Source of the DNA: a virus | Taxonomy: Duplodnaviria > Heunggongvirae > Uroviricota > Caudoviricetes | Virus record (IMG/VR): IMGVR_UViG_3300032322_001781 | DNA: 64,000 bases | Strand: one strand, 5' to 3' | In this document: one piece after another, positions 4,281 to 64,000 of the stretch | Layout of the letters: each line of letters opens with the position of its first letter | Numbering within the stretch: the first letter of the stretch is position 1 | Position numbers and translations under genes: made by a program | The notes under the pieces: model-generated | Database searches by the model: none | What the model was told of the DNA's origin: nothing | What the model saw: only the letters and a program-made list of their open reading frames with translations

Positions 4281-5483
4281 ATGGGATTTATATCAAGTGC
4301 AAATACGATTACATTAAACGCTAAGTTAACACCATTAGGTAGACAAAGAATGATTTCTACAAATAATGGACTTATCACCACATTTTCTTTGGGTGACTCT
4401 GACGCTAATTACTATGTTCCATTAACTTTGTCAACTGGACAAATTCCAGCTGAAGCTGGTGAAATTGGTGCAAACGCATCTTTTAGCAATAGTACTGCTC
4501 AAAACGTAAAATTAAAATCACCTATTATTGTTAATTCTAGTGGTTTACTAAGAAAACCAGTTGAATCTCAATCAATAACAATATCAACAGATTTATTATC
4601 AAATGGTTTTACAACAGTAAGTGGTAATAATTTAACACGAGTTATTATTGACAGAAATAATTACAATACGGATGCTTTGGTTAATTTATATTATTCATTT
4701 GGTTTACCTTTAAACACAAATAATGATAATACTTATACTGGTATAACATATGCAAATGGTGGATATTCAGATACAGCACTTAGTGCGATTTCTAAAACAA
4801 AAATATTAGTTATTGGCATAAACAATGCAAATTATGGTGAGTGTATTGATGGTAAAACTGTAAAAATACAATTACCTACATCAGCTGGCACCTATACAAT
4901 TTATAGCACTTTTCAAAATGATGGAACTTCTTTATCCATCCAAGATGCTAATATAAGAGACACATCAGTTGTAACAAGCTATTTAGATGATAATATTGCA
5001 ATGTTATTCTCAGATTCTATTGCTAGACCAAACGGTGGCTCTAGTTCATTAAGTTGGGCAACTGGATACGGGACAACAAAACCTTTTAGCGTTAATGGAA
5101 AACAACTTTACAATTTACAAACAAATAGCAATATTGGAACTACAGCTGATACTATTGTTGGTATTGCATACCTTGATAAGGGCTTTATGGTCATTACAAA
5201 CCAACAGATTATTTCAAATTATACTTCAACAGCAGCCACAGCTACTACAGTTAGTTTTAACAGTGTTTCAACTTCAGTTTACCAAAATATAACATGTGTT
5301 GCAGCTAGAGGCGAATTTGGCACTTCAACCAATTCAACTTTTACAGGTTCAGATGTTGTTAGGATTTCAGAAGTAGGTTTATACGACAATTTAAATAATT
5401 TGATAGCTATCGGTAAAACTGATAGACAAGTTACAAAAAATGTAAATGAATTTTTAGCTTTAAGTGTAAAAATAAATTTGTAA
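4281..5483 (+). CDS. Baseplate/tail structural protein (paralogous ends to 2144..4279)
   Basis: AKLTPLGR ... SEVGLYDNLNNLIAIGK motifs. Confidence 0.65.
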   Translation: MGFISSANTITLNAKLTPLGRQRMISTNNGLITTFSLGDSDANYYVPLTLSTGQIPAEAGEIGANASFSNSTAQNVKLKSPIIVNSSGLLRKPVESQSITISTDLLSNGFTTVSGNNLTRVIIDRNNYNTDALVNLYYSFGLPLNTNNDNTYTGITYANGGYSDTALSAISKTKILVIGINNANYGECIDGKTVKIQLPTSAGTYTIYSTFQNDGTSLSIQDANIRDTSVVTSYLDDNIAMLFSDSIARPNGGSSSLSWATGYGTTKPFSVNGKQLYNLQTNSNIGTTADTIVGIAYLDKGFMVITNQQIISNYTSTAATATTVSFNSVSTSVYQNITCVAARGEFGTSTNSTFTGSDVVRISEVGLYDNLNNLIAIGKTDRQVTKNVNEFLALSVKINL

Positions 5484-5527
5484 TCTTTACCTTTTATTAA
5501 AGGTTCTTAGATTAGTGTTAAAAACAT

Positions 5528-6169
5528 ATGCAAAAAGAACCAAAATTTATATTGGCCTTGGATGTATCCACATCTACAATAGGTATTGCTTTATTTGAAG
5601 ACTTGGGTGACAAAGGAGAACTTAAATTGTTACATCATGTTAGCCCAAAGGTAAAACCAAAACCAGAAAACAAAATGGAAGAATTATTCAAAAAAGTTGA
5701 AATCTTCCAAACAGAGTTTTTAAACAAATATGCAGATTTTGGTATTTCAAATGTTATTATTGAAGAACCACTTTTACAATCAAACAACGTATATACAATT
5801 GCAACGCTTTTACGTTTTAATGGGATGATTTCTAAATCTGTTTTTGATACCATCGGTGTTGTACCAGATTTTATATCATCATACGATGCTCGTAAATATG
5901 CGTTTCCAGAATTGATGTCTGTTAGAAAAGCTAAAAAAGATGGAACCCCATTGTCAGAAAAACAAATATCTAAAAACGAACCTGTGTTATTTGGGGGTTA
6001 CCCATTTGATGTGGATAAAAAAATGGTAATTTTTGACAAAGTTTGTGATTTAGAACCACAAATAAAATGGATATTAGATAAAAACAATGTACTAAAAAAA
6101 GAAAATTTTGACATGAGTGATGCTTACACATGTGGTTTAGCTTGGTTTAATCTTAGAAAACAAAGTTAA
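5528..6169 (+). CDS. ruvC: RuvC-like Holliday junction resolvase
   Basis: ILALDVST, IIEEP and DMSDAY RNase H-fold acidic motifs. Confidence 0.75.
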   Translation: MQKEPKFILALDVSTSTIGIALFEDLGDKGELKLLHHVSPKVKPKPENKMEELFKKVEIFQTEFLNKYADFGISNVIIEEPLLQSNNVYTIATLLRFNGMISKSVFDTIGVVPDFISSYDARKYAFPELMSVRKAKKDGTPLSEKQISKNEPVLFGGYPFDVDKKMVIFDKVCDLEPQIKWILDKNNVLKKENFDMSDAYTCGLAWFNLRKQS

Positions 6170-9971: not shown

Positions 9972-12322
9972 TGGAAGATAAATTAAGAATATCACCTTAT
10001 TCTAGAATAAAAGTAGAATGGACAGACCGACCAGAAAATTATTCTAAAGAAAATAAGAATAAAGTAAGAAACTATTTTGCTAACAAATATGGTGTGAATA
10101 AAAATAACATAAATGTTGTTTATAAACCTGTTAAATTTAATGAAAATGGTGACGCTATTGAAATAACTGGTGCTGGTATTGAAAACATTATGGATGTTAA
10201 TTATCAAAGAGCTCTTATGAAAGAGTTAATTGTTAGAGATAATAAAAATGTTGATTTTAACAGAATTATTGCGCTAGATGATAAAGTTAATGGTGAATTA
10301 AACATCGATTTAACTCAATCACAACACAAGTCGTGGTCTATAAAATGGATTATGATTGATAATTTTCTTTCTTTTGGTGAAAACAATTATATCCCTTTTA
10401 GTAAATTTAAAGGCTTAACAGTTGTGAATTCAATTCCTGGGAATCAAGGTGGTAAAACAACACTTACCATAGATGCTATAAAATTTTTATTACATGGTTC
10501 CACAACCAAAACCGATAAAAACGAAGAAGTATTTAACACTTATACTGGCAAAAATGAATTGGTTGTTCGAGGGATGATTGAAATTGAAGGTGAAGAAACC
10601 ATCATAGAGCGTAAAATGAAGCGAAGCTCCAAAAAAGGTGGTGGTTGGACTGTCATAAACAAGGTAAATTACTATAAAATTTTACCAGATGGGGAAGAAG
10701 AAGAATTAAATGAAGAAGATGCTAAAAAGACGACTTCAAAATTAAAAGAGACCATAGGTAGTGAAAAAGATTTTGAAATGTTGGTTTTGGCAACTGAAAA
10801 AAATCTAGATGACCTTATCGGTTTGACAACAACAGAATCTGGTAAAATATTAACTAGGCTTATTGGTTTGGAAATACTTGAGTTAAAAGAAGCTGCTGTT
10901 AGGGTGATGTATAATGATTTTACCAGAAAGAAAAAATCAAATGAATTCGATGTAATCACATTAACGAATGAAATCGAAGAACATAAAAACAAGATACTAG
11001 AATCTGAACAACTTGAAGAATTGTTTAGAAAAAGATTGTCAGATACTAAATCAGAGCTCCAAAAAAACAATGAGGAGAATGATAGGTTATTAAATAGCAA
11101 ACAAAAAATAGATGTTTCGATTTCTACATTAAACCCATCATCACTTCAAAATGAAGTAGATTTGTTAACAAAAAAAGGTGTAGAAACAAAGGCGAAGATA
11201 ACTGAAATGAATGATGTTATTTTTGCATATGGTAAAATTGAATTTGATGAAGACCTTCATTATATGTATACCAAAGAACTTAATGGTTTGACTTCTAAAA
11301 AAGCTGTTTTTGAAGCGGAAATAAAACGGTTAACTAAAGTTATTGCTGATTTGATAGCTGGGGGTATTTGTCAATCATGTCATCGTAAATTGGATGATGT
11401 AGACAATACTGAACATATTAATAAACACAATGAAGAGATAAATAAAATTAACAGTGACATATCTGATATATCAAAAAGACTAGAGGTGTTAGAGAGTTAT
11501 TTGTTGAACCTTAATGAGATTAAAGTAAAAGTAGATAAGAAAAATAGATTAGAGTTAGATAGAGATAGATTAGAGGTTGAAATTGGTTCATTAAGAAATA
11601 AGGTGGTTGAAAAAATGAATGATTTAAAAAAATACAACCTTAACTTAGAAGCTATTGAACATAATAAAAGAATTGATATTGAGGTTAGTAAAGTAAAAAC
11701 AAATATTTCAGTACTTAATCATACTAAAGATGAAACAATAACTAGGATAGAAAGAGTTACAAACGAAATACAAAATCATAATACCAACATTTCGACCAAA
11801 ACAAAATTAATAGAAACTATTAAAAAAGAAGAAGAGATTGATAAAATTTTTAAGATTTATATTGACTTGGTTGGTAAAAAAGGTATAAGCAAGTTGGTAT
11901 TAAGGTCAGTGTTACCTATAATAAATTCAGAAGTTCAAAGATTATTAGAAGATGTTTGTGATTTTGAAGTGGAGATATTTATAGATGATAAAAACGATGT
12001 TCAATTTTTGATAAATAAGGATGATGTTTCAAAACAACTTAAATCAGCTAGTGGTTTTGAAAAAACTGCGTCTAGTCTTGCGTTAAGAGGTGTTCTGGGT
12101 AAAATGTCTACGTTACCTATGCCTAATTTCATAACTTTTGATGAAGTTTTAGGTAAAGTAGCTCCAGAAAATATTGAAAAACTGAAAGGGTTGTTTGATA
12201 AGATTAAAAACATGTATGAAATTGTTTTTTTAATAACACATAATGATTTGGTAAAAGATTGGGCTGTTTCTTTGGTTACCGTTATAAAAGAAAATAATGT
12301 TTCGAAAATTAAAATTACATAA
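9971..12322 (+). CDS. sbcC: SMC-like recombination ATPase (SbcC/gp46/Rad50-like)
   Basis: Walker A NQGGKTT, CQSC zinc hook, SASGFEK signature, Walker B FITFDEV. Confidence 0.9.
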   Translation: MEDKLRISPYSRIKVEWTDRPENYSKENKNKVRNYFANKYGVNKNNINVVYKPVKFNENGDAIEITGAGIENIMDVNYQRALMKELIVRDNKNVDFNRIIALDDKVNGELNIDLTQSQHKSWSIKWIMIDNFLSFGENNYIPFSKFKGLTVVNSIPGNQGGKTTLTIDAIKFLLHGSTTKTDKNEEVFNTYTGKNELVVRGMIEIEGEETIIERKMKRSSKKGGGWTVINKVNYYKILPDGEEEELNEEDAKKTTSKLKETIGSEKDFEMLVLATEKNLDDLIGLTTTESGKILTRLIGLEILELKEAAVRVMYNDFTRKKKSNEFDVITLTNEIEEHKNKILESEQLEELFRKRLSDTKSELQKNNEENDRLLNSKQKIDVSISTLNPSSLQNEVDLLTKKGVETKAKITEMNDVIFAYGKIEFDEDLHYMYTKELNGLTSKKAVFEAEIKRLTKVIADLIAGGICQSCHRKLDDVDNTEHINKHNEEINKINSDISDISKRLEVLESYLLNLNEIKVKVDKKNRLELDRDRLEVEIGSLRNKVVEKMNDLKKYNLNLEAIEHNKRIDIEVSKVKTNISVLNHTKDETITRIERVTNEIQNHNTNISTKTKLIETIKKEEEIDKIFKIYIDLVGKKGISKLVLRSVLPIINSEVQRLLEDVCDFEVEIFIDDKNDVQFLINKDDVSKQLKSASGFEKTASSLALRGVLGKMSTLPMPNFITFDEVLGKVAPENIEKLKGLFDKIKNMYEIVFLITHNDLVKDWAVSLVTVIKENNVSKIKIT

Positions 12323-33703: not shown

Positions 33704-33799
33704 AAAAAAAATATTTTTTTTAAATTTACTTGACAAATAATGATTTTTTTAGTACTTTTGCATATATATTTAAACAACGTTCTTTAAAAAACAAAAATT

Positions 33800-34020
33800 A
33801 TCCAAAAAGGTGGGTTCTGCAAACGAACTTTAAACAATTACTAATATGTAAAAAGTATGTGGGCCTTTTACCAAACCTATGACCGAAAGGATGGTTTGGA
33901 ACCAAAACCACCATGGTGTAAGACCATGTAAAAAAATAACTTCATGACGGAGGTCATGTAAAAATAGCTGCTAGGTAAACGGGAGTCCTATAAAATAAAA
34001 ACGAACAGCCATCTTGGGAT
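33800..34020 (+). ncRNA. Candidate structured ncRNA (helix + TTCTGCAA family)
   Basis: AAGGTGG/CCATCTT closing helix; internal hairpins CCAAACC/GGTTTGG, CATGG/CCATG, CATGAC/GTCATG; own TAnnTTTG promoter at 33753. Confidence 0.55.
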
Positions 34021-34025
34021 AACAT

Positions 34026-34095
34026 AGGGGATTGAGCGTAAGTAACGCTGAGGGCGATTGGGCCCTTTGATTAAGTATCGAATCTTCATCCCCTA
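34026..34095 (+). tRNA. Degenerate tRNA-like gene, anticodon unclear
   Basis: AGGGGAT/ATCCCCT acceptor, D-arm, AGGGC/GCCCT arm with a 6-nt loop, weak T-arm. Confidence 0.45.
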
Positions 34096-34100
34096 CATAT

Positions 34101-38161: not shown

Positions 38162-38226
38162 TACTTGACAAATTAAAAAATAATTAGTACCTTTGCATAA
38201 CTTTTAGAAAAAACAACATATTTATT
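38162..38226 (+). promoter_or_regulatory. tRNA-operon promoter, copy 1
   Basis: TTGACA (38165) ... TACCTTTG (38188) followed by TATTTAT; near-identical copies at about 56451, 59517 and 63425. Confidence 0.8.
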
Positions 38227-39333: not shown

Positions 39334-39418
39334 CGTGAGGTGGTCTAGCGGTTTGGGGCACCAGTCTGATACACTGGAGAGGAAACTCTATAGGTGGGTT
39401 CGACTCCCACCCTCACGA
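39334..39418 (+). tRNA. tRNA-Ile(GAT), long variable arm
   Basis: ctGATac loop, CCAGT/ACTGG stem. Confidence 0.85.
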
Positions 39419-39427
39419 CTTTAAATT

Positions 39428-56659: not shown

Positions 56660-56746
56660 GCTCATATACCAAAGTGGTTGAATGGGGCGGTCTGCAAAAC
56701 CGCTGGATTGAAAAATCCCACGTAGGTTCGAATCCTACTATGAGCT
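56660..56746 (+). tRNA. tRNA-Cys(GCA), long variable arm
   Basis: ctGCAaa loop, U73. Confidence 0.88.
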
Positions 56747-56764
56747 CACAAACAAATAATAAAA

Positions 56765-57465: not shown

Positions 57466-57525
57466 CAAAAATAAATTTGGTAATATTAAAAATATATATT
57501 ACCTTTGTTTCGTTCTTTAATATAT

Positions 57526-57688: not shown

Positions 57689-57794
57689 GGTGAGGTGGTG
57701 AAATTGGTAGACGCAACCTATTAAGGGGTCGGAGGTAATAGCAAAACGTAAGATACGGAATAACTCCATGCAAGTTCAAATCTTGTCCTCACCA
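57689..57794 (+). tRNA. tRNA-Leu-like gene, irregular anticodon loop (TAA or AAG), variable arm of about 40 nt
   Basis: Leu-type D-arm GGTGAAATTGGTAGACGC, intact acceptor and T-arm. Confidence 0.6.
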
Positions 57795-59455: not shown

Positions 59456-59516
59456 AATAAATTTGGTAATGTTAAAATTAATACATACCTTTGTCCTATC
59501 AAATTAAAAACAAAAA

Positions 59517-60001: not shown

Positions 60002-60087
60002 GTCGCATTAGCCTAACAGGTTAGGGCACCAGCCTTTCAAGCTGGAAGTCGAAAGACTGTGAGAGGGTTCGAGTCCCTCATGCGATA
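60002..60087 (+). tRNA. tRNA-Glu(TTC), long variable arm
   Basis: CCAGC-ctTTCaa-GCTGG arm; AGTC-GAAA-GACT variable arm. Confidence 0.88.
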
Positions 60088-60150
60088 CCTTGACTTTTTT
60101 TGTACTTTTTCTATAAAGAAAGAAGAACAATTTGGAAAGACGGATAATAT

Positions 60151-60651: not shown

Positions 60652-60914
60652 CAAAAACCCTAAAATTTTTTATTTTATACTTGCACGATATTAAAATGTT
60701 TAGTAGCTTTGCATTATTAAACAAACGTTCTGATTTTTTTTAGTGATTAAAGGGCTGTCCATGGCCCACGTAATAAAATACGTATGAACTACAGTTCATG
60801 TAAACATATGACAAATTAGCCAATTGTTAGTAGCAATATGTTAAAAAACAGAGACCAATGGATTCTAATTTGAATGGTTAGATAGGTAGTTAGAGCCGAA
60901 AAATCTAATAAATG

Positions 60915-61113: not shown

Positions 61114-61235
61114 AGGGAGGTGGCCAAATTGGTAAAGGCGGCAGTAAGCAAAAAGATTAATCTGTTAAGATTAAGTTCAGCAACCAAAACGCAATGGAAA
61201 ACTGCTATTTGTGGGTTCGAATCCTACCCTCCCTA
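61114..61235 (+). tRNA. tRNA-like gene with a 55-nt anticodon loop containing the helix + TTCAGCAA motif
   Basis: AGGGAGG/CCTCCCT acceptor; GCAGT/ACTGC stem encloses TTAATCT/AGATTAA-GTTCAGCAA. Confidence 0.65.
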
Positions 61236-62590: not shown

Positions 62591-63013
62591 GTGGTGAGTG
62601 TAGTAAACAGGAAGACGCTGGGGACAGTATGTCTAGCGATAGCAACCTTCCTAAACCCTTTTGGGTTCGATATTTTGGTTTACAAACTAATGTCGTTAAC
62701 AAACGATTATTGGAGCACAATGCTTATATTATATGTATTTTCGGCCCTGTTCTTTGGAGTATCTTTTATTTCATTTAAATTAGGTGAAAAGATAATAGCA
62801 AATGCAACGATGACTGTTGGTTTATTTTTGAATCCGTTAGGTTATGATTTTGTTGTTTTTGGTATAAATAAATTAACAAACGATTATTGGATTACAATGA
62901 GTATTATGTATATAATGGCTACGTTATTTTTTATTGGTTTTATGGTTTTTTATAAAATAAATCCGATAAAAATAATTAATATAAAAACTAAAAAATATGG
63001 ACAAAAATTTTAA
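62591..63013 (+). CDS. Four-TM membrane protein with internal duplication
   Basis: Two copies of FLNP(F/L)G(F/Y)D...LTNDYW.TM. Confidence 0.65.
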   Translation: MVSVVNRKTLGTVCLAIATFLNPFGFDILVYKLMSLTNDYWSTMLILYVFSALFFGVSFISFKLGEKIIANATMTVGLFLNPLGYDFVVFGINKLTNDYWITMSIMYIMATLFFIGFMVFYKINPIKIINIKTKKYGQKF

Positions 63014-63407
63014 CGACTTATTTGACGAATTTTTTTTTAAAAAAAATTTATCCGATAGCGATTTCTACAAAAAAATAAACATCAATATTAAACAATTGTT
63101 TGACCTTCTTAAAAATGTTAAAACAAATGAAATTGATGGAAAAACAGATATGTCATTGGGCGAACCAGATAGTGTTGAATCATATTCAGATGGTTTTTTC
63201 TTTTTTGAAAAAAAAGTATGGCACACCCCAAATGGTGATATTATAAAAATAACAGCTTCAGATAATACAGATAATTTACATGAGCCAGAAAAAACGTTAC
63301 AAGAACAATTGGATGAAGCTATAAATAATGAAAACTACGAGAAAGCCGCACAGATTCGTGACCTTATGAATCCACCAAAGAAAAAAAAGTCCACCAAAAA
63401 AAAATAA
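62997..63407 (+). CDS. UVR (UvrB/UvrC-motif) domain protein
   Basis: LDEAINNENYEKAAQIRD motif. Confidence 0.7.
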   Translation: MDKNFNDLFDEFFFKKNLSDSDFYKKININIKQLFDLLKNVKTNEIDGKTDMSLGEPDSVESYSDGFFFFEKKVWHTPNGDIIKITASDNTDNLHEPEKTLQEQLDEAINNENYEKAAQIRDLMNPPKKKKSTKKK

Positions 63408-63424: not shown

Positions 63425-63490
63425 ACTTGACAAATTAAAAATTAATTAGTACCTTTGCATAACTTTTAGAAACAACAACATATTTATATA
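63425..63490 (+). promoter_or_regulatory. tRNA-operon promoter, copy 4
   Basis: TTGACA at 63427, TACCTTTG at 63450, then TATTTAT. Confidence 0.8.
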
Positions 63491-63502
63491 ACAATAAAAG
63501 CA

Positions 63503-63595
63503 ATGAAAACAACAACGACATATACAGGGAAACAGTATCCGCAAGGCAAACAATTGCCTAACGGACTAGTAATGTCGTTATATAATCTAAGCTAA
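63503..63595 (+). CDS. Attenuator leader peptide L4, MKTTTTYTGKQYPQGKQLPNGLVMSLYNLS
   Basis: Codons 2-17 encode only K, T, Y, G, Q, P; antiterminator segment GGACTAG at 63563-63569. Confidence 0.85.
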   Translation: MKTTTTYTGKQYPQGKQLPNGLVMSLYNLS

Positions 63596-63618
63596 CAAAA
63601 CTTAGATATTTTAAAGAC

Positions 63619-63651
63619 AACCCCTAGTCCTCAAAAAACTAGGGGTTTTTT
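63619..63651 (+). terminator. Attenuator terminator T4
   Basis: AACCCCTAGT/ACTAGGGGTT stem plus T-run. Confidence 0.88.
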
Positions 63652-63714
63652 GTTTTTGGTAGGTCACCATATAAAATATAGACCAAACGTATATTTGACA
63701 TTTTGGATTTTCAT

Positions 63715-63787
63715 AGGGTAATATATCAATTGGAAGATTACATACTTTGGGAGTATGAGGTTGGAGGTTCGAGTCCTCTTTACCCTA
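63715..63787 (+). tRNA. tRNA-Pro(TGG)
   Basis: CATAC-ttTGGga-GTATG arm. Confidence 0.88.
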
Positions 63788-63795
63788 CAATAAAT

Positions 63796-63889
63796 CGGGA
63801 TTTGTGCGAGAGGTTTAAGCATCCAGTCTTGGAAACTGGAAACCGTACAAGGTTAGTGCGGTTCGAGGGTTCGACTCCCTCAATCCCGA
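63796..63889 (+). tRNA. tRNA-Ser(GGA)
   Basis: CCAGT-ctTGGAa region read as ttGGAaa; long variable arm. Confidence 0.75.
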
Positions 63890-63902
63890 CAAATTTTATC
63901 AT

Positions 63903-63989
63903 TCTGCTTTCGCCTAATTGGTAGGGCACGGGGCTTTGAACTCCGCAATCGTAAGATTCTAGGTCTAGGTTCGAATCCTAGAGGCAGAA
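63903..63989 (+). tRNA. tRNA-Gln(TTG), long variable arm
   Basis: U1:A72, ctTTGaa loop. Confidence 0.75.
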
Positions 63990-64000
63990 CATTTAAGAGT

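Follow-up and report, generated by a model that had tools for sequence, protein, structure and literature searches.

Near the end of the 64,000-nt stretch of viral DNA analyzed in this study (hereafter the window), a promoter, a short open reading frame (ORF), and a GC-rich hairpin followed by a U tract stand ahead of the last of four tRNA gene clusters. This arrangement raises the question of whether the tRNA genes are controlled by a leader-peptide attenuator and, if so, what the attenuator senses. Leader-peptide attenuation is a textbook mechanism known for genes of amino-acid supply. In the present locus, the same logic would gate tRNA genes; the regulator would measure its own product, namely the tRNAs for six amino acids at once, and it would do so in a virus. 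We consider, with a probability of roughly 0.8, that the element is a ribosome-mediated leader-peptide transcription attenuator sensing the supply of its own tRNAs, and that the phage probably makes this six-amino-acid tRNA set only when ribosomes read the corresponding codons slowly.

The locus and its continuation beyond the window

The window is AT-rich (31% G+C) and phage-like, and ARAGORN identified 22 tRNA genes and a tmRNA gene in it, with further tRNA matches obtained from Rfam. The sequence past the window end was taken from L005, a 20.4-kb stretch of a 306,401-bp metagenome scaffold, which was found through the protein of the neighboring UVR-domain gene encoded on the same scaffold. 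In the window this gene lies at 62997-63407, and its stop codon precedes the promoter block of the leader under study (leader 4). Comparison of the window with L005 revealed 0 mismatches over all 11,004 shared bases; the source is an uncultured jumbo phage from a lake, with a genome of approximately 306 kb. The nearest virus record (G001) stops approximately 200 nt past its copy of the promoter, and no extension was gained from it. No relative of the 3-kb leader and tRNA region was found in the GenBank phage collection. The tRNA cluster is followed in L005 by protein genes, and those directly 3′ of the cluster match the Pfam families tRNA_Me_trans (tRNA methyl transferase) and Acb1/2_5_RNA_ligase2.

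Promoter and 5′ leader

The promoter of leader 4 (63427-63457, + strand) is of the Bacteroidota type and has the arrangement TTG(ACA)-N17-TACCTTTG, that is, TTG, 20 nt, and TACCTTTG; TTG-N20-TAnnTTTG is the promoter form of Bacteroidota. The window contains 22 matches to this form, all on the + strand, compared with 2.95 expected, and near-identical promoter blocks are located ahead of the three other leaders (at 38165, 56454, and 59520). The promoter is followed by an A-rich 5′ leader without a Shine-Dalgarno sequence (63458-63502, + strand), which is unpaired in the minimum-energy fold and is conserved both across the four leaders of the window and among relatives. No full promoter of the TAnnTTTG type was found from 63458 to the end of cluster 4.

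Leader codons and downstream tRNA genes

The leader ORF (63503-63595, + strand) comprises 30 codons and a TAA stop and reads MKTTTTYTGKQYPQGKQLPNGLVMSLYNLS; its ATG is 46 nt 3′ of the -7 box, and the ORF is presumably translated. Codons 2-17 (63506-63553, + strand), hereafter the regulatory codons, are AAA ACA ACA ACG ACA TAT ACA GGG AAA CAG TAT CCG CAA GGC AAA CAA, which encode K T T T T Y T G K Q Y P Q G K Q. An earlier note on this DNA had claimed that these codons all belong to {K,T,Y,G,Q,P} and include a Thr run resembling that of thrL, and reading the ORF proved this true: 16/16 fall in the set, and four of the five Thr codons are consecutive. Because the six amino acids constitute 30.9% of the residues in 53 long ORFs, 16/16 would arise by chance with p = 7e-9, and the stretch is unique across six frames of 73 kb.

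The tRNA genes behind the leader, followed through the window into L005, are in the order Pro, Pro-type, Gln, Tyr, Thr, Gly, Gly, Lys, and Lys, and they serve exactly P, Q, Y, T, G, and K and no other amino acid. Three are located in the window, all on the + strand: tRNA-Pro(UGG), which opens the cluster (63715-63788; ARAGORN, Rfam tRNA model 57.1 bits); a 95-nt tRNA with the anticodon UGG (63796-63890; ARAGORN cloverleaf, Rfam tRNA model 50.6 bits); and an 88-nt tRNA-Gln(UUG) with an extra variable stem (63903-63990; ARAGORN), which is the last gene of the window. The remaining genes, at L005 11066-12151, are Tyr(GTA), Thr(TGT), Gly(TCC), Gly(GCC), Lys(CTT), and Lys(TTT), the Lys(CTT) call being low-scoring.

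The first three tRNAs had been named Pro(TGG), Ser(GGA), and Gln(TTG) in the earlier note. The Pro and Gln assignments agree with ARAGORN; Ser(GGA) was dropped because a normal 7-nt anticodon loop (c-t-TGG-a-a) places TGG (63830-63832) as the anticodon. The same tRNA has an 8-bp variable stem, C1-G72, and A73, the latter two features being characteristic of the acceptor stem of tRNA-Pro in bacteria. This gene encodes another UGG tRNA that serves Pro codons; its extra arm is long, and its acceptor end is of the Pro type. This correction helps the attenuator reading because Ser would lie outside the leader set. The same note had regarded downstream tRNAs unrelated to that set as evidence against attenuation; the tRNAs in L005 belong to the same six amino acids, and because the leader set {P,Q,Y,T,G,K} equals the tRNA set of the cluster, the attenuator reading survives.

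The match extends to individual codons. Under standard wobble rules, all 16 regulatory codons are readable by the downstream anticodons UUU, UGU, GUA, UCC, GCC, UUG, and UGG, and the two Gly isoacceptors are each probed by a codon of their own (UCC by GGG and GCC by GGC). Within their synonymous sets, the leader codons include both the commonest of the phage (AAA, ACA, TAT, and CAA) and the rarest (CCG, 3% of the set; GGC, 7%; CAG, 9%; ACG, 9%; and GGG, 10%). The rare G/C-rich codons are situated in paired stretches.

A second Lys-rich frame was observed inside cluster 4. At L005 11899-11971 (equivalent to window positions 64895-64967), six of the 14 codons of an ORF (M K K M S F K F K R K S K R) encode Lys; the ORF runs directly into a 12-bp hairpin that lacks a U tract, and the two Lys tRNA genes come immediately afterward. 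Both the ORF and the hairpin are kept in the variant L022, and together they may form a second, Lys-specific layer of control.

Predicted helices and switch geometry

The leader RNA folds at -42.1 kcal/mol, compared with -20.0 ± 3.3 kcal/mol for shuffled sequences (z = -6.6). Using ViennaRNA, we identified three mutually exclusive helices (1:2, 2:3, and 3:4) formed by four segments in the manner of trp. Segment 1 (63514-63527, + strand), which lies within codons 4-9, is the 5′ arm of the protector (1:2) and pairs with 63566-63579. The protector hairpin (63514-63579, -21.9 kcal/mol) is present in the minimum-energy fold, overlaps the regulatory codons, and is kept in relatives with a partly shifted register. 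Segment 2 (63562-63580, + strand; codons 20-26), with the core GGACTAG at 63563-63569, can pair with segment 1 or segment 3, and segment 3 (63612-63630, + strand) can pair with segment 2 to form the antiterminator or with segment 4 to form the terminator.

The antiterminator (2:3) is a rod of -20.6 kcal/mol composed of 63563-63569/63624-63630, 63573-63576/63616-63619, and 63578-63580/63612-63614, and it is capped at its tip by a small hairpin (63585-63607, + strand) whose loop contains the stop codon TAA (63593-63595). Part of the antiterminator sequence also belongs to the 5′ arm of the terminator. The predicted intrinsic terminator (3:4; 63619-63657, + strand) has a GC-rich stem (63619-63628/63638-63647), a 9-nt loop, and the tract T6 (63646-63651)-G-T5, and its hairpin energy is -14.6 kcal/mol. 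A consensus terminator scan did not flag 63619-63657 because its 9-nt loop exceeds the 8-nt loop limit of that scan.

The earlier note had described GGACTAG (63563-63569) as perfectly complementary to CTAGTCC (63624-63630), and this is exact. Taken alone, the 7-mer complement is weak evidence, considering that 2-3% of shuffled or random 110-nt stretches contain one and that the antiterminator core is only 7 bp long. Single-sequence shuffles of the duplex energy of the 2:3 pairing yielded fractions of 0.01-0.43, mostly not significant, although this procedure undercounts the present lineage, in which segment 3 extends into the terminator loop.

To place the ribosome on this structure, we took its footprint to span -15 to +14 relative to the A site, masked these positions, and folded the transcript up to segment 3. 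The antiterminator formed when the A site was at codons 2-16 and was blocked at codons 17-28 and at the stop codon, and similar behavior was obtained in the 12 other variants described below. The stretch of regulatory codons therefore stops at the point from which a stalled ribosome would start to cover segment 2. When the whole leader was transcribed, the minimum-energy fold contained the terminator at any ribosome position; as in trp, switching must therefore depend on which helices fold first as the RNA is being transcribed.

Conservation and covariation among relatives

The first variants of the leader were obtained through pattern scans of viral and metagenome contigs that required part of the peptide, so that conservation among them is partly built in. 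Two further variants, L035 and L096, were found through a neighboring-gene search and a generic tRNA-arm scan in which the leader sequence was unused, giving a set of 13 including the window. A covariance model constructed from the first eleven variants recovered L035 at 50.5 bits and L096 at 38.9 bits. The ORF frame is open over 28-35 codons in all 13 variants, and every variant with enough downstream DNA carries Pro, Gln, Tyr, Thr, Gly, and Lys tRNAs, with the exception of L020, which is discussed below. The leaders of L035 and L096 are rearranged (in L035, K K T T T Y Q Y T G K P Q G Q G K Q G P), yet neither the set of amino acids nor that of the tRNAs differs.

The peptide differs widely in its C-terminal half from variant to variant, whereas segment 2 keeps its pairing. 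The core 2:3 helix is paired in 11/11 variants, with G-U substitutions only. In the 13-sequence alignment, which was fitted to the structure and thereby favors it, 13 pairs changed on both sides, compared with 6.0 ± 1.4 in shuffled alignments, and 0/500 shuffles reached as high a count. Across the 13 variants, the terminator is paired in 97.7% of cells and shows 4 compensatory pairs; in the small hairpin at the tip of the rod, 5/7 pairs change on both sides among relatives, with only 56% of cells paired. An ORF segment mimicking the 3′ arm of the terminator is present in every variant.

The distant relative L096 has a different terminator, with the arms CCCAGTTGAA and TTCAACTGGG, and its segment 2 is TCAACTG, located at codons 20-22 in the same place as GGACTAG here. 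This variant, in which the terminator and the antiterminator have been swapped together, is the most telling case. The tRNA match, the set of 1:2, 2:3, and 3:4 helices, and the conservation and covariation in 13 variants thus support the attenuator proposed in the earlier note.

Sister leaders and unrelated tRNA clusters

The window contains four such units, in which a promoter block, a short ORF, and a terminator stand ahead of each of the four tRNA clusters. Of the 16 codons at positions 2-17, the cluster behind each leader serves 16, 11, 11, and 16 in the four leaders, and any other cluster serves at most 4. Together, the four leaders cover most amino acids.

A T-arm 20-mer pattern proved too generic and returned unrelated phages, and we reused its loci as an unbiased survey of 59 tRNA clusters. 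Among these clusters on unrelated viral contigs, at least two-thirds of the tested codons were served only in L096 and in the pair L066/L062. The latter pair represents a GC-richer, unrelated phage with a sigma-70-type promoter and a short ORF beginning with M N I R R H K F H N N R I, which in L066 lies on the - strand approximately 184 nt ahead of the first tRNA gene and in L062 at 2442-2492. The downstream tRNAs are Arg(ACG/TCG), Ile, Lys, Asn, His, and Phe, and the Arg codons CGA and CGC fit the Arg(ACG) tRNA. No canonical U-tract terminator was seen at the L066/L062 leader. The principle of a codon-matched leader may thus recur outside this phage group, perhaps with another mechanism.

For leader 4, an alternative reading is that leader translation controls the tRNAs through Rho-dependent termination, or through RNase processing or stability of the precursor, rather than through an intrinsic terminator. 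The L066/L062 leader, a codon-matched short ORF ahead of tRNA genes without a canonical U-tract terminator, is consistent with this reading, as is the Lys mini-ORF in cluster 4, which is followed by a 12-bp hairpin lacking a U tract. We nonetheless regard it as improbable: the GC-rich stem and the T6 tract are present here and conserved with compensatory changes, and the mimic of the terminator 3′ arm in the ORF of every variant is a signature of control by an intrinsic terminator.

Spacer between the terminator and the first tRNA gene

A 63-nt spacer separates the terminator from tRNA-Pro. It contains a conserved element (63694-63708, + strand; TTTGACATTTTGGAT) of the form TTTGACAT(A/T)TTGGAT, which occurs once in the window and is kept in all lineages, with variable flanks. 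The element could be a processing signal or a protein-binding site. Just 5′ of it, a U tract and GG can pair with a conserved CCAAA-T-AAAA stretch. A sigma-70-like match (TTGACA-18-TAATAT, 63695-63724) overlaps the start of the first tRNA gene and might allow some transcription that bypasses the gate. Reading TTTGACAT...TTGGAT as an internal promoter was rejected as unsupported: TATATTTG (63690-63697) matches the -7 box in this lineage only, and the -10 box of the sigma-70-like match falls within the tRNA gene and lacks conservation.

These elements bear on the possibility that the ORF and hairpin belong to a separate small gene or small RNA that ends at a constitutive terminator, that transcription of the tRNAs starts at another site (for example, the TTGACA at 63695), and that the codon match has no role in regulation. 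The sigma-70-like match, the conserved spacer element, and the leader without tRNAs in L020 can each be cited in its favor. In L020, the leader and terminator are kept (5339-5700), and no tRNA is present in 13.7 kb; the UVR-domain gene is followed by two small ORFs and a GP88-family gene. The same UVR-to-GP88 interval in L005 holds the tRNA cluster and the two genes matching tRNA_Me_trans and Acb1/2_5_RNA_ligase2, and the complete cluster is present in L034, whose leader differs little from that of L020. On this comparison of gene orders, L020 can be read as a deletion that left an orphan leader and that also took the neighboring genes between the UVR-domain and GP88-family genes. The putative -10 box of the sigma-70-like match, moreover, lies inside the tRNA and is not conserved, and the promoters of this phage are of the TAnnTTTG type, which is absent in full form downstream of 63457 through to the cluster end. 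What is conserved in the C-terminal half of the ORF is its RNA pairing and not its peptide, and an independent gene or RNA would leave unexplained the 16/16 match, the top score of each leader with its own cluster, and the match in L035 and L096. We therefore hold this explanation to be very improbable and retain the attenuator as the preferred reading.

Proposed mechanism and comparison with known systems

In the attenuator that we propose, transcription would start at the promoter (63427-63457) and a ribosome would begin the 30-codon leader. With charged Lys, Thr, Tyr, Gly, Gln, and Pro tRNAs in ample supply, it would move on over segment 2 and leave segment 3 free, such that the 3:4 terminator (63619-63647) forms with the U tract behind it and RNA polymerase halts ahead of the tRNA genes. 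Should any of the six tRNAs be scarce, the ribosome would stall in codons 2-16 and hold segment 1; segment 2 would then pair with segment 3, no terminator would form, and transcription would read through into the tRNA cluster. The new tRNAs would quicken leader translation and close the gate, a feedback loop in which the sensed molecule is the product. If the leader is not translated, the 1:2 hairpin would form first and lead to termination. The direction of the switch is that suggested by the folding model, and close coupling of transcription and translation is assumed for the presumed Bacteroidota host. Candidate causes of natural tRNA depletion are the AT-rich codon demand of the phage, host shut-off, and host nucleases.

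This scheme shares with the thrL, ilvL, trpL, and hisL attenuators a promoter-near short ORF in which regulatory codons abound, three overlapping helices (1:2, 2:3, and 3:4), a GC-rich hairpin with a U tract, and read-through on stalling. In the enterobacterial attenuators of amino-acid operons, thrL contains Thr and Ile codons and ilvL contains Ile, Leu, and Val codons; like such multivalent leaders, leader 4 samples several amino acids, and its Thr run resembles that of thrL. Unlike in thrL, ilvL, trpL, and hisL, the genes controlled here would be tRNA genes and not those of biosynthetic enzymes, so that the product would be the sensed molecule; six amino acids are involved at once, and the element lies in a phage, behind a Bacteroidota-type promoter, and without a Shine-Dalgarno sequence. 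The Rfam leader families (Thr_leader, His_leader, Trp_leader, and others) gave no match at the gathering score, and at E values up to 10 only chance-level matches appeared, the best being PyrR at 22 bits compared with the 54 needed.

In E. coli, the pheM leader attenuator controls pheST, which encodes Phe-tRNA synthetase. Like the element proposed here, that attenuator sets the level of a component of the translation apparatus by the decoding rate of its cognate codons, but it controls a protein (the synthetase), responds to one amino acid, and belongs to a cellular gene. T-boxes likewise switch between terminator and antiterminator according to the state of a particular tRNA, and the genes that they govern belong to the tRNA-charging pathway; T-boxes differ in binding the uncharged tRNA directly, without an ORF or a ribosome. 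No T-box is known to gate tRNA genes, and the Rfam T-box model detected no T-box match (specifier loop or T-box motif) in the leader.

Large tRNA sets that include Lys and Tyr tRNAs, with a plausible role in replacing lost host tRNAs, are also found in phage tRNA arrays that counter tRNA-targeting defenses, such as the tRNA-rich region of T5 (PMC11555353, PMC10264068, PMC11464382). In T5, a strong promoter drives high expression of the tRNA-Tyr gene, and the accessible part of the same report describes no translational sensing of tRNA supply in the T5 array (PMC11555353). A full-text literature search on tRNA-gene attenuation and phage tRNA regulation returned no report of attenuation controlling tRNA genes; the single mention of a "tRNA operon" in PMC3082878 refers to the supercoiling of a Salmonella tRNA promoter.

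If confirmed, the proposed attenuator would indicate that large phages regulate their tRNA arrays on demand and not constitutively, that the codons whose supply a phage anticipates running short during infection can be read from sequence alone, and that there are small, programmable detectors of decoding speed that synthetic biology could reuse. The question of why phages carry tRNAs would also become open to experiment, through the depletion to which each gate responds.

Possible triggers of the switch

The same mechanism could serve, as the earlier note had suggested, as a dedicated defense sensor, in which the trigger would be anti-phage anticodon nucleases that cleave host Lys and Tyr tRNAs, and others, and the answer would be replacement phage tRNAs. 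The PtuAB effectors of retron Eco7 are reported to destroy tRNA-Tyr and PrrC to act on tRNA-Lys (PMC11555353), and phage tRNAs rescue infection from tRNA-destroying host systems (PMC11555353, PMC10264068, PMC11464382). Systems of this kind, and rescue from them by phage tRNAs, would provide a rationale for such a sensor. The position of the Lys tRNAs behind the second, Lys-rich mini-ORF and hairpin, and that of the genes of the tRNA_Me_trans and Acb1/2_5_RNA_ligase2 families directly downstream of the cluster, are also in line with it. However, the sequence singles out no nuclease trigger, and the argument draws on the known biology of other phages. Thr (five codons), Gly, Gln, and Pro are weighted as much as Lys and Tyr, and the sister leaders cover other amino acids, which looks like general control of supply. 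Because the four leaders together cover most amino acids, general sensing of tRNA supply fits at least as well as defense sensing, and we consider a sensor dedicated to defense unlikely.

A broader form of this idea, which we put forward tentatively, is that the four leaders constitute a counter-defense circuit, in which each leader senses, by way of ribosome stalling, the loss of a group of host tRNAs and induces only the matching block of nuclease-resistant phage tRNAs. The triggers in such a circuit would be anticodon nucleases or host shut-off, and some of the induced tRNAs would be those with unusual extra arms. If this possibility were true, it would represent an inducible repair of the translation apparatus by a virus.

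Additional observations on tRNA genes and promoters

Several tRNAs of types that normally have a short variable arm carry a long extra variable stem in this phage: Pro/UGG (95 nt, 63796-63890), Gln (88 nt, 63903-63990), Cys (88 nt, 56660-56747), Glu (88 nt, 60002-60089), and Ile (86 nt, 39334-39419) in the window, and Lys/UUU (89 nt, 12063-12151) in L005. In the variants L008 and L010, the Gln gene lacks exactly the extra arm, which appears as a 15-nt gap in the alignment. Two further stretches of the window, 61114-61235 (122 nt) and 57689-57794 (106 nt), match the Rfam tRNA model and were uncalled by ARAGORN; they may be tRNAs with insertions or degenerate copies.

Extra TTG-N20-TAnnTTTG matches were present inside or beside clusters 2 and 3 (57477-57507, 59463-59493, and 60681-60711), and some tRNAs of these clusters may thereby escape their own attenuator. 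In the region 33730-34100, a fifth promoter, of the same class (TTGACAAAT...TAnnTTTG), was observed 340 nt ahead of a lone tRNA-Met(CAT). The stretch between this promoter and the tRNA gene is ATG-rich and contains ATG-TAA mini-frames and hairpins built from CATG.
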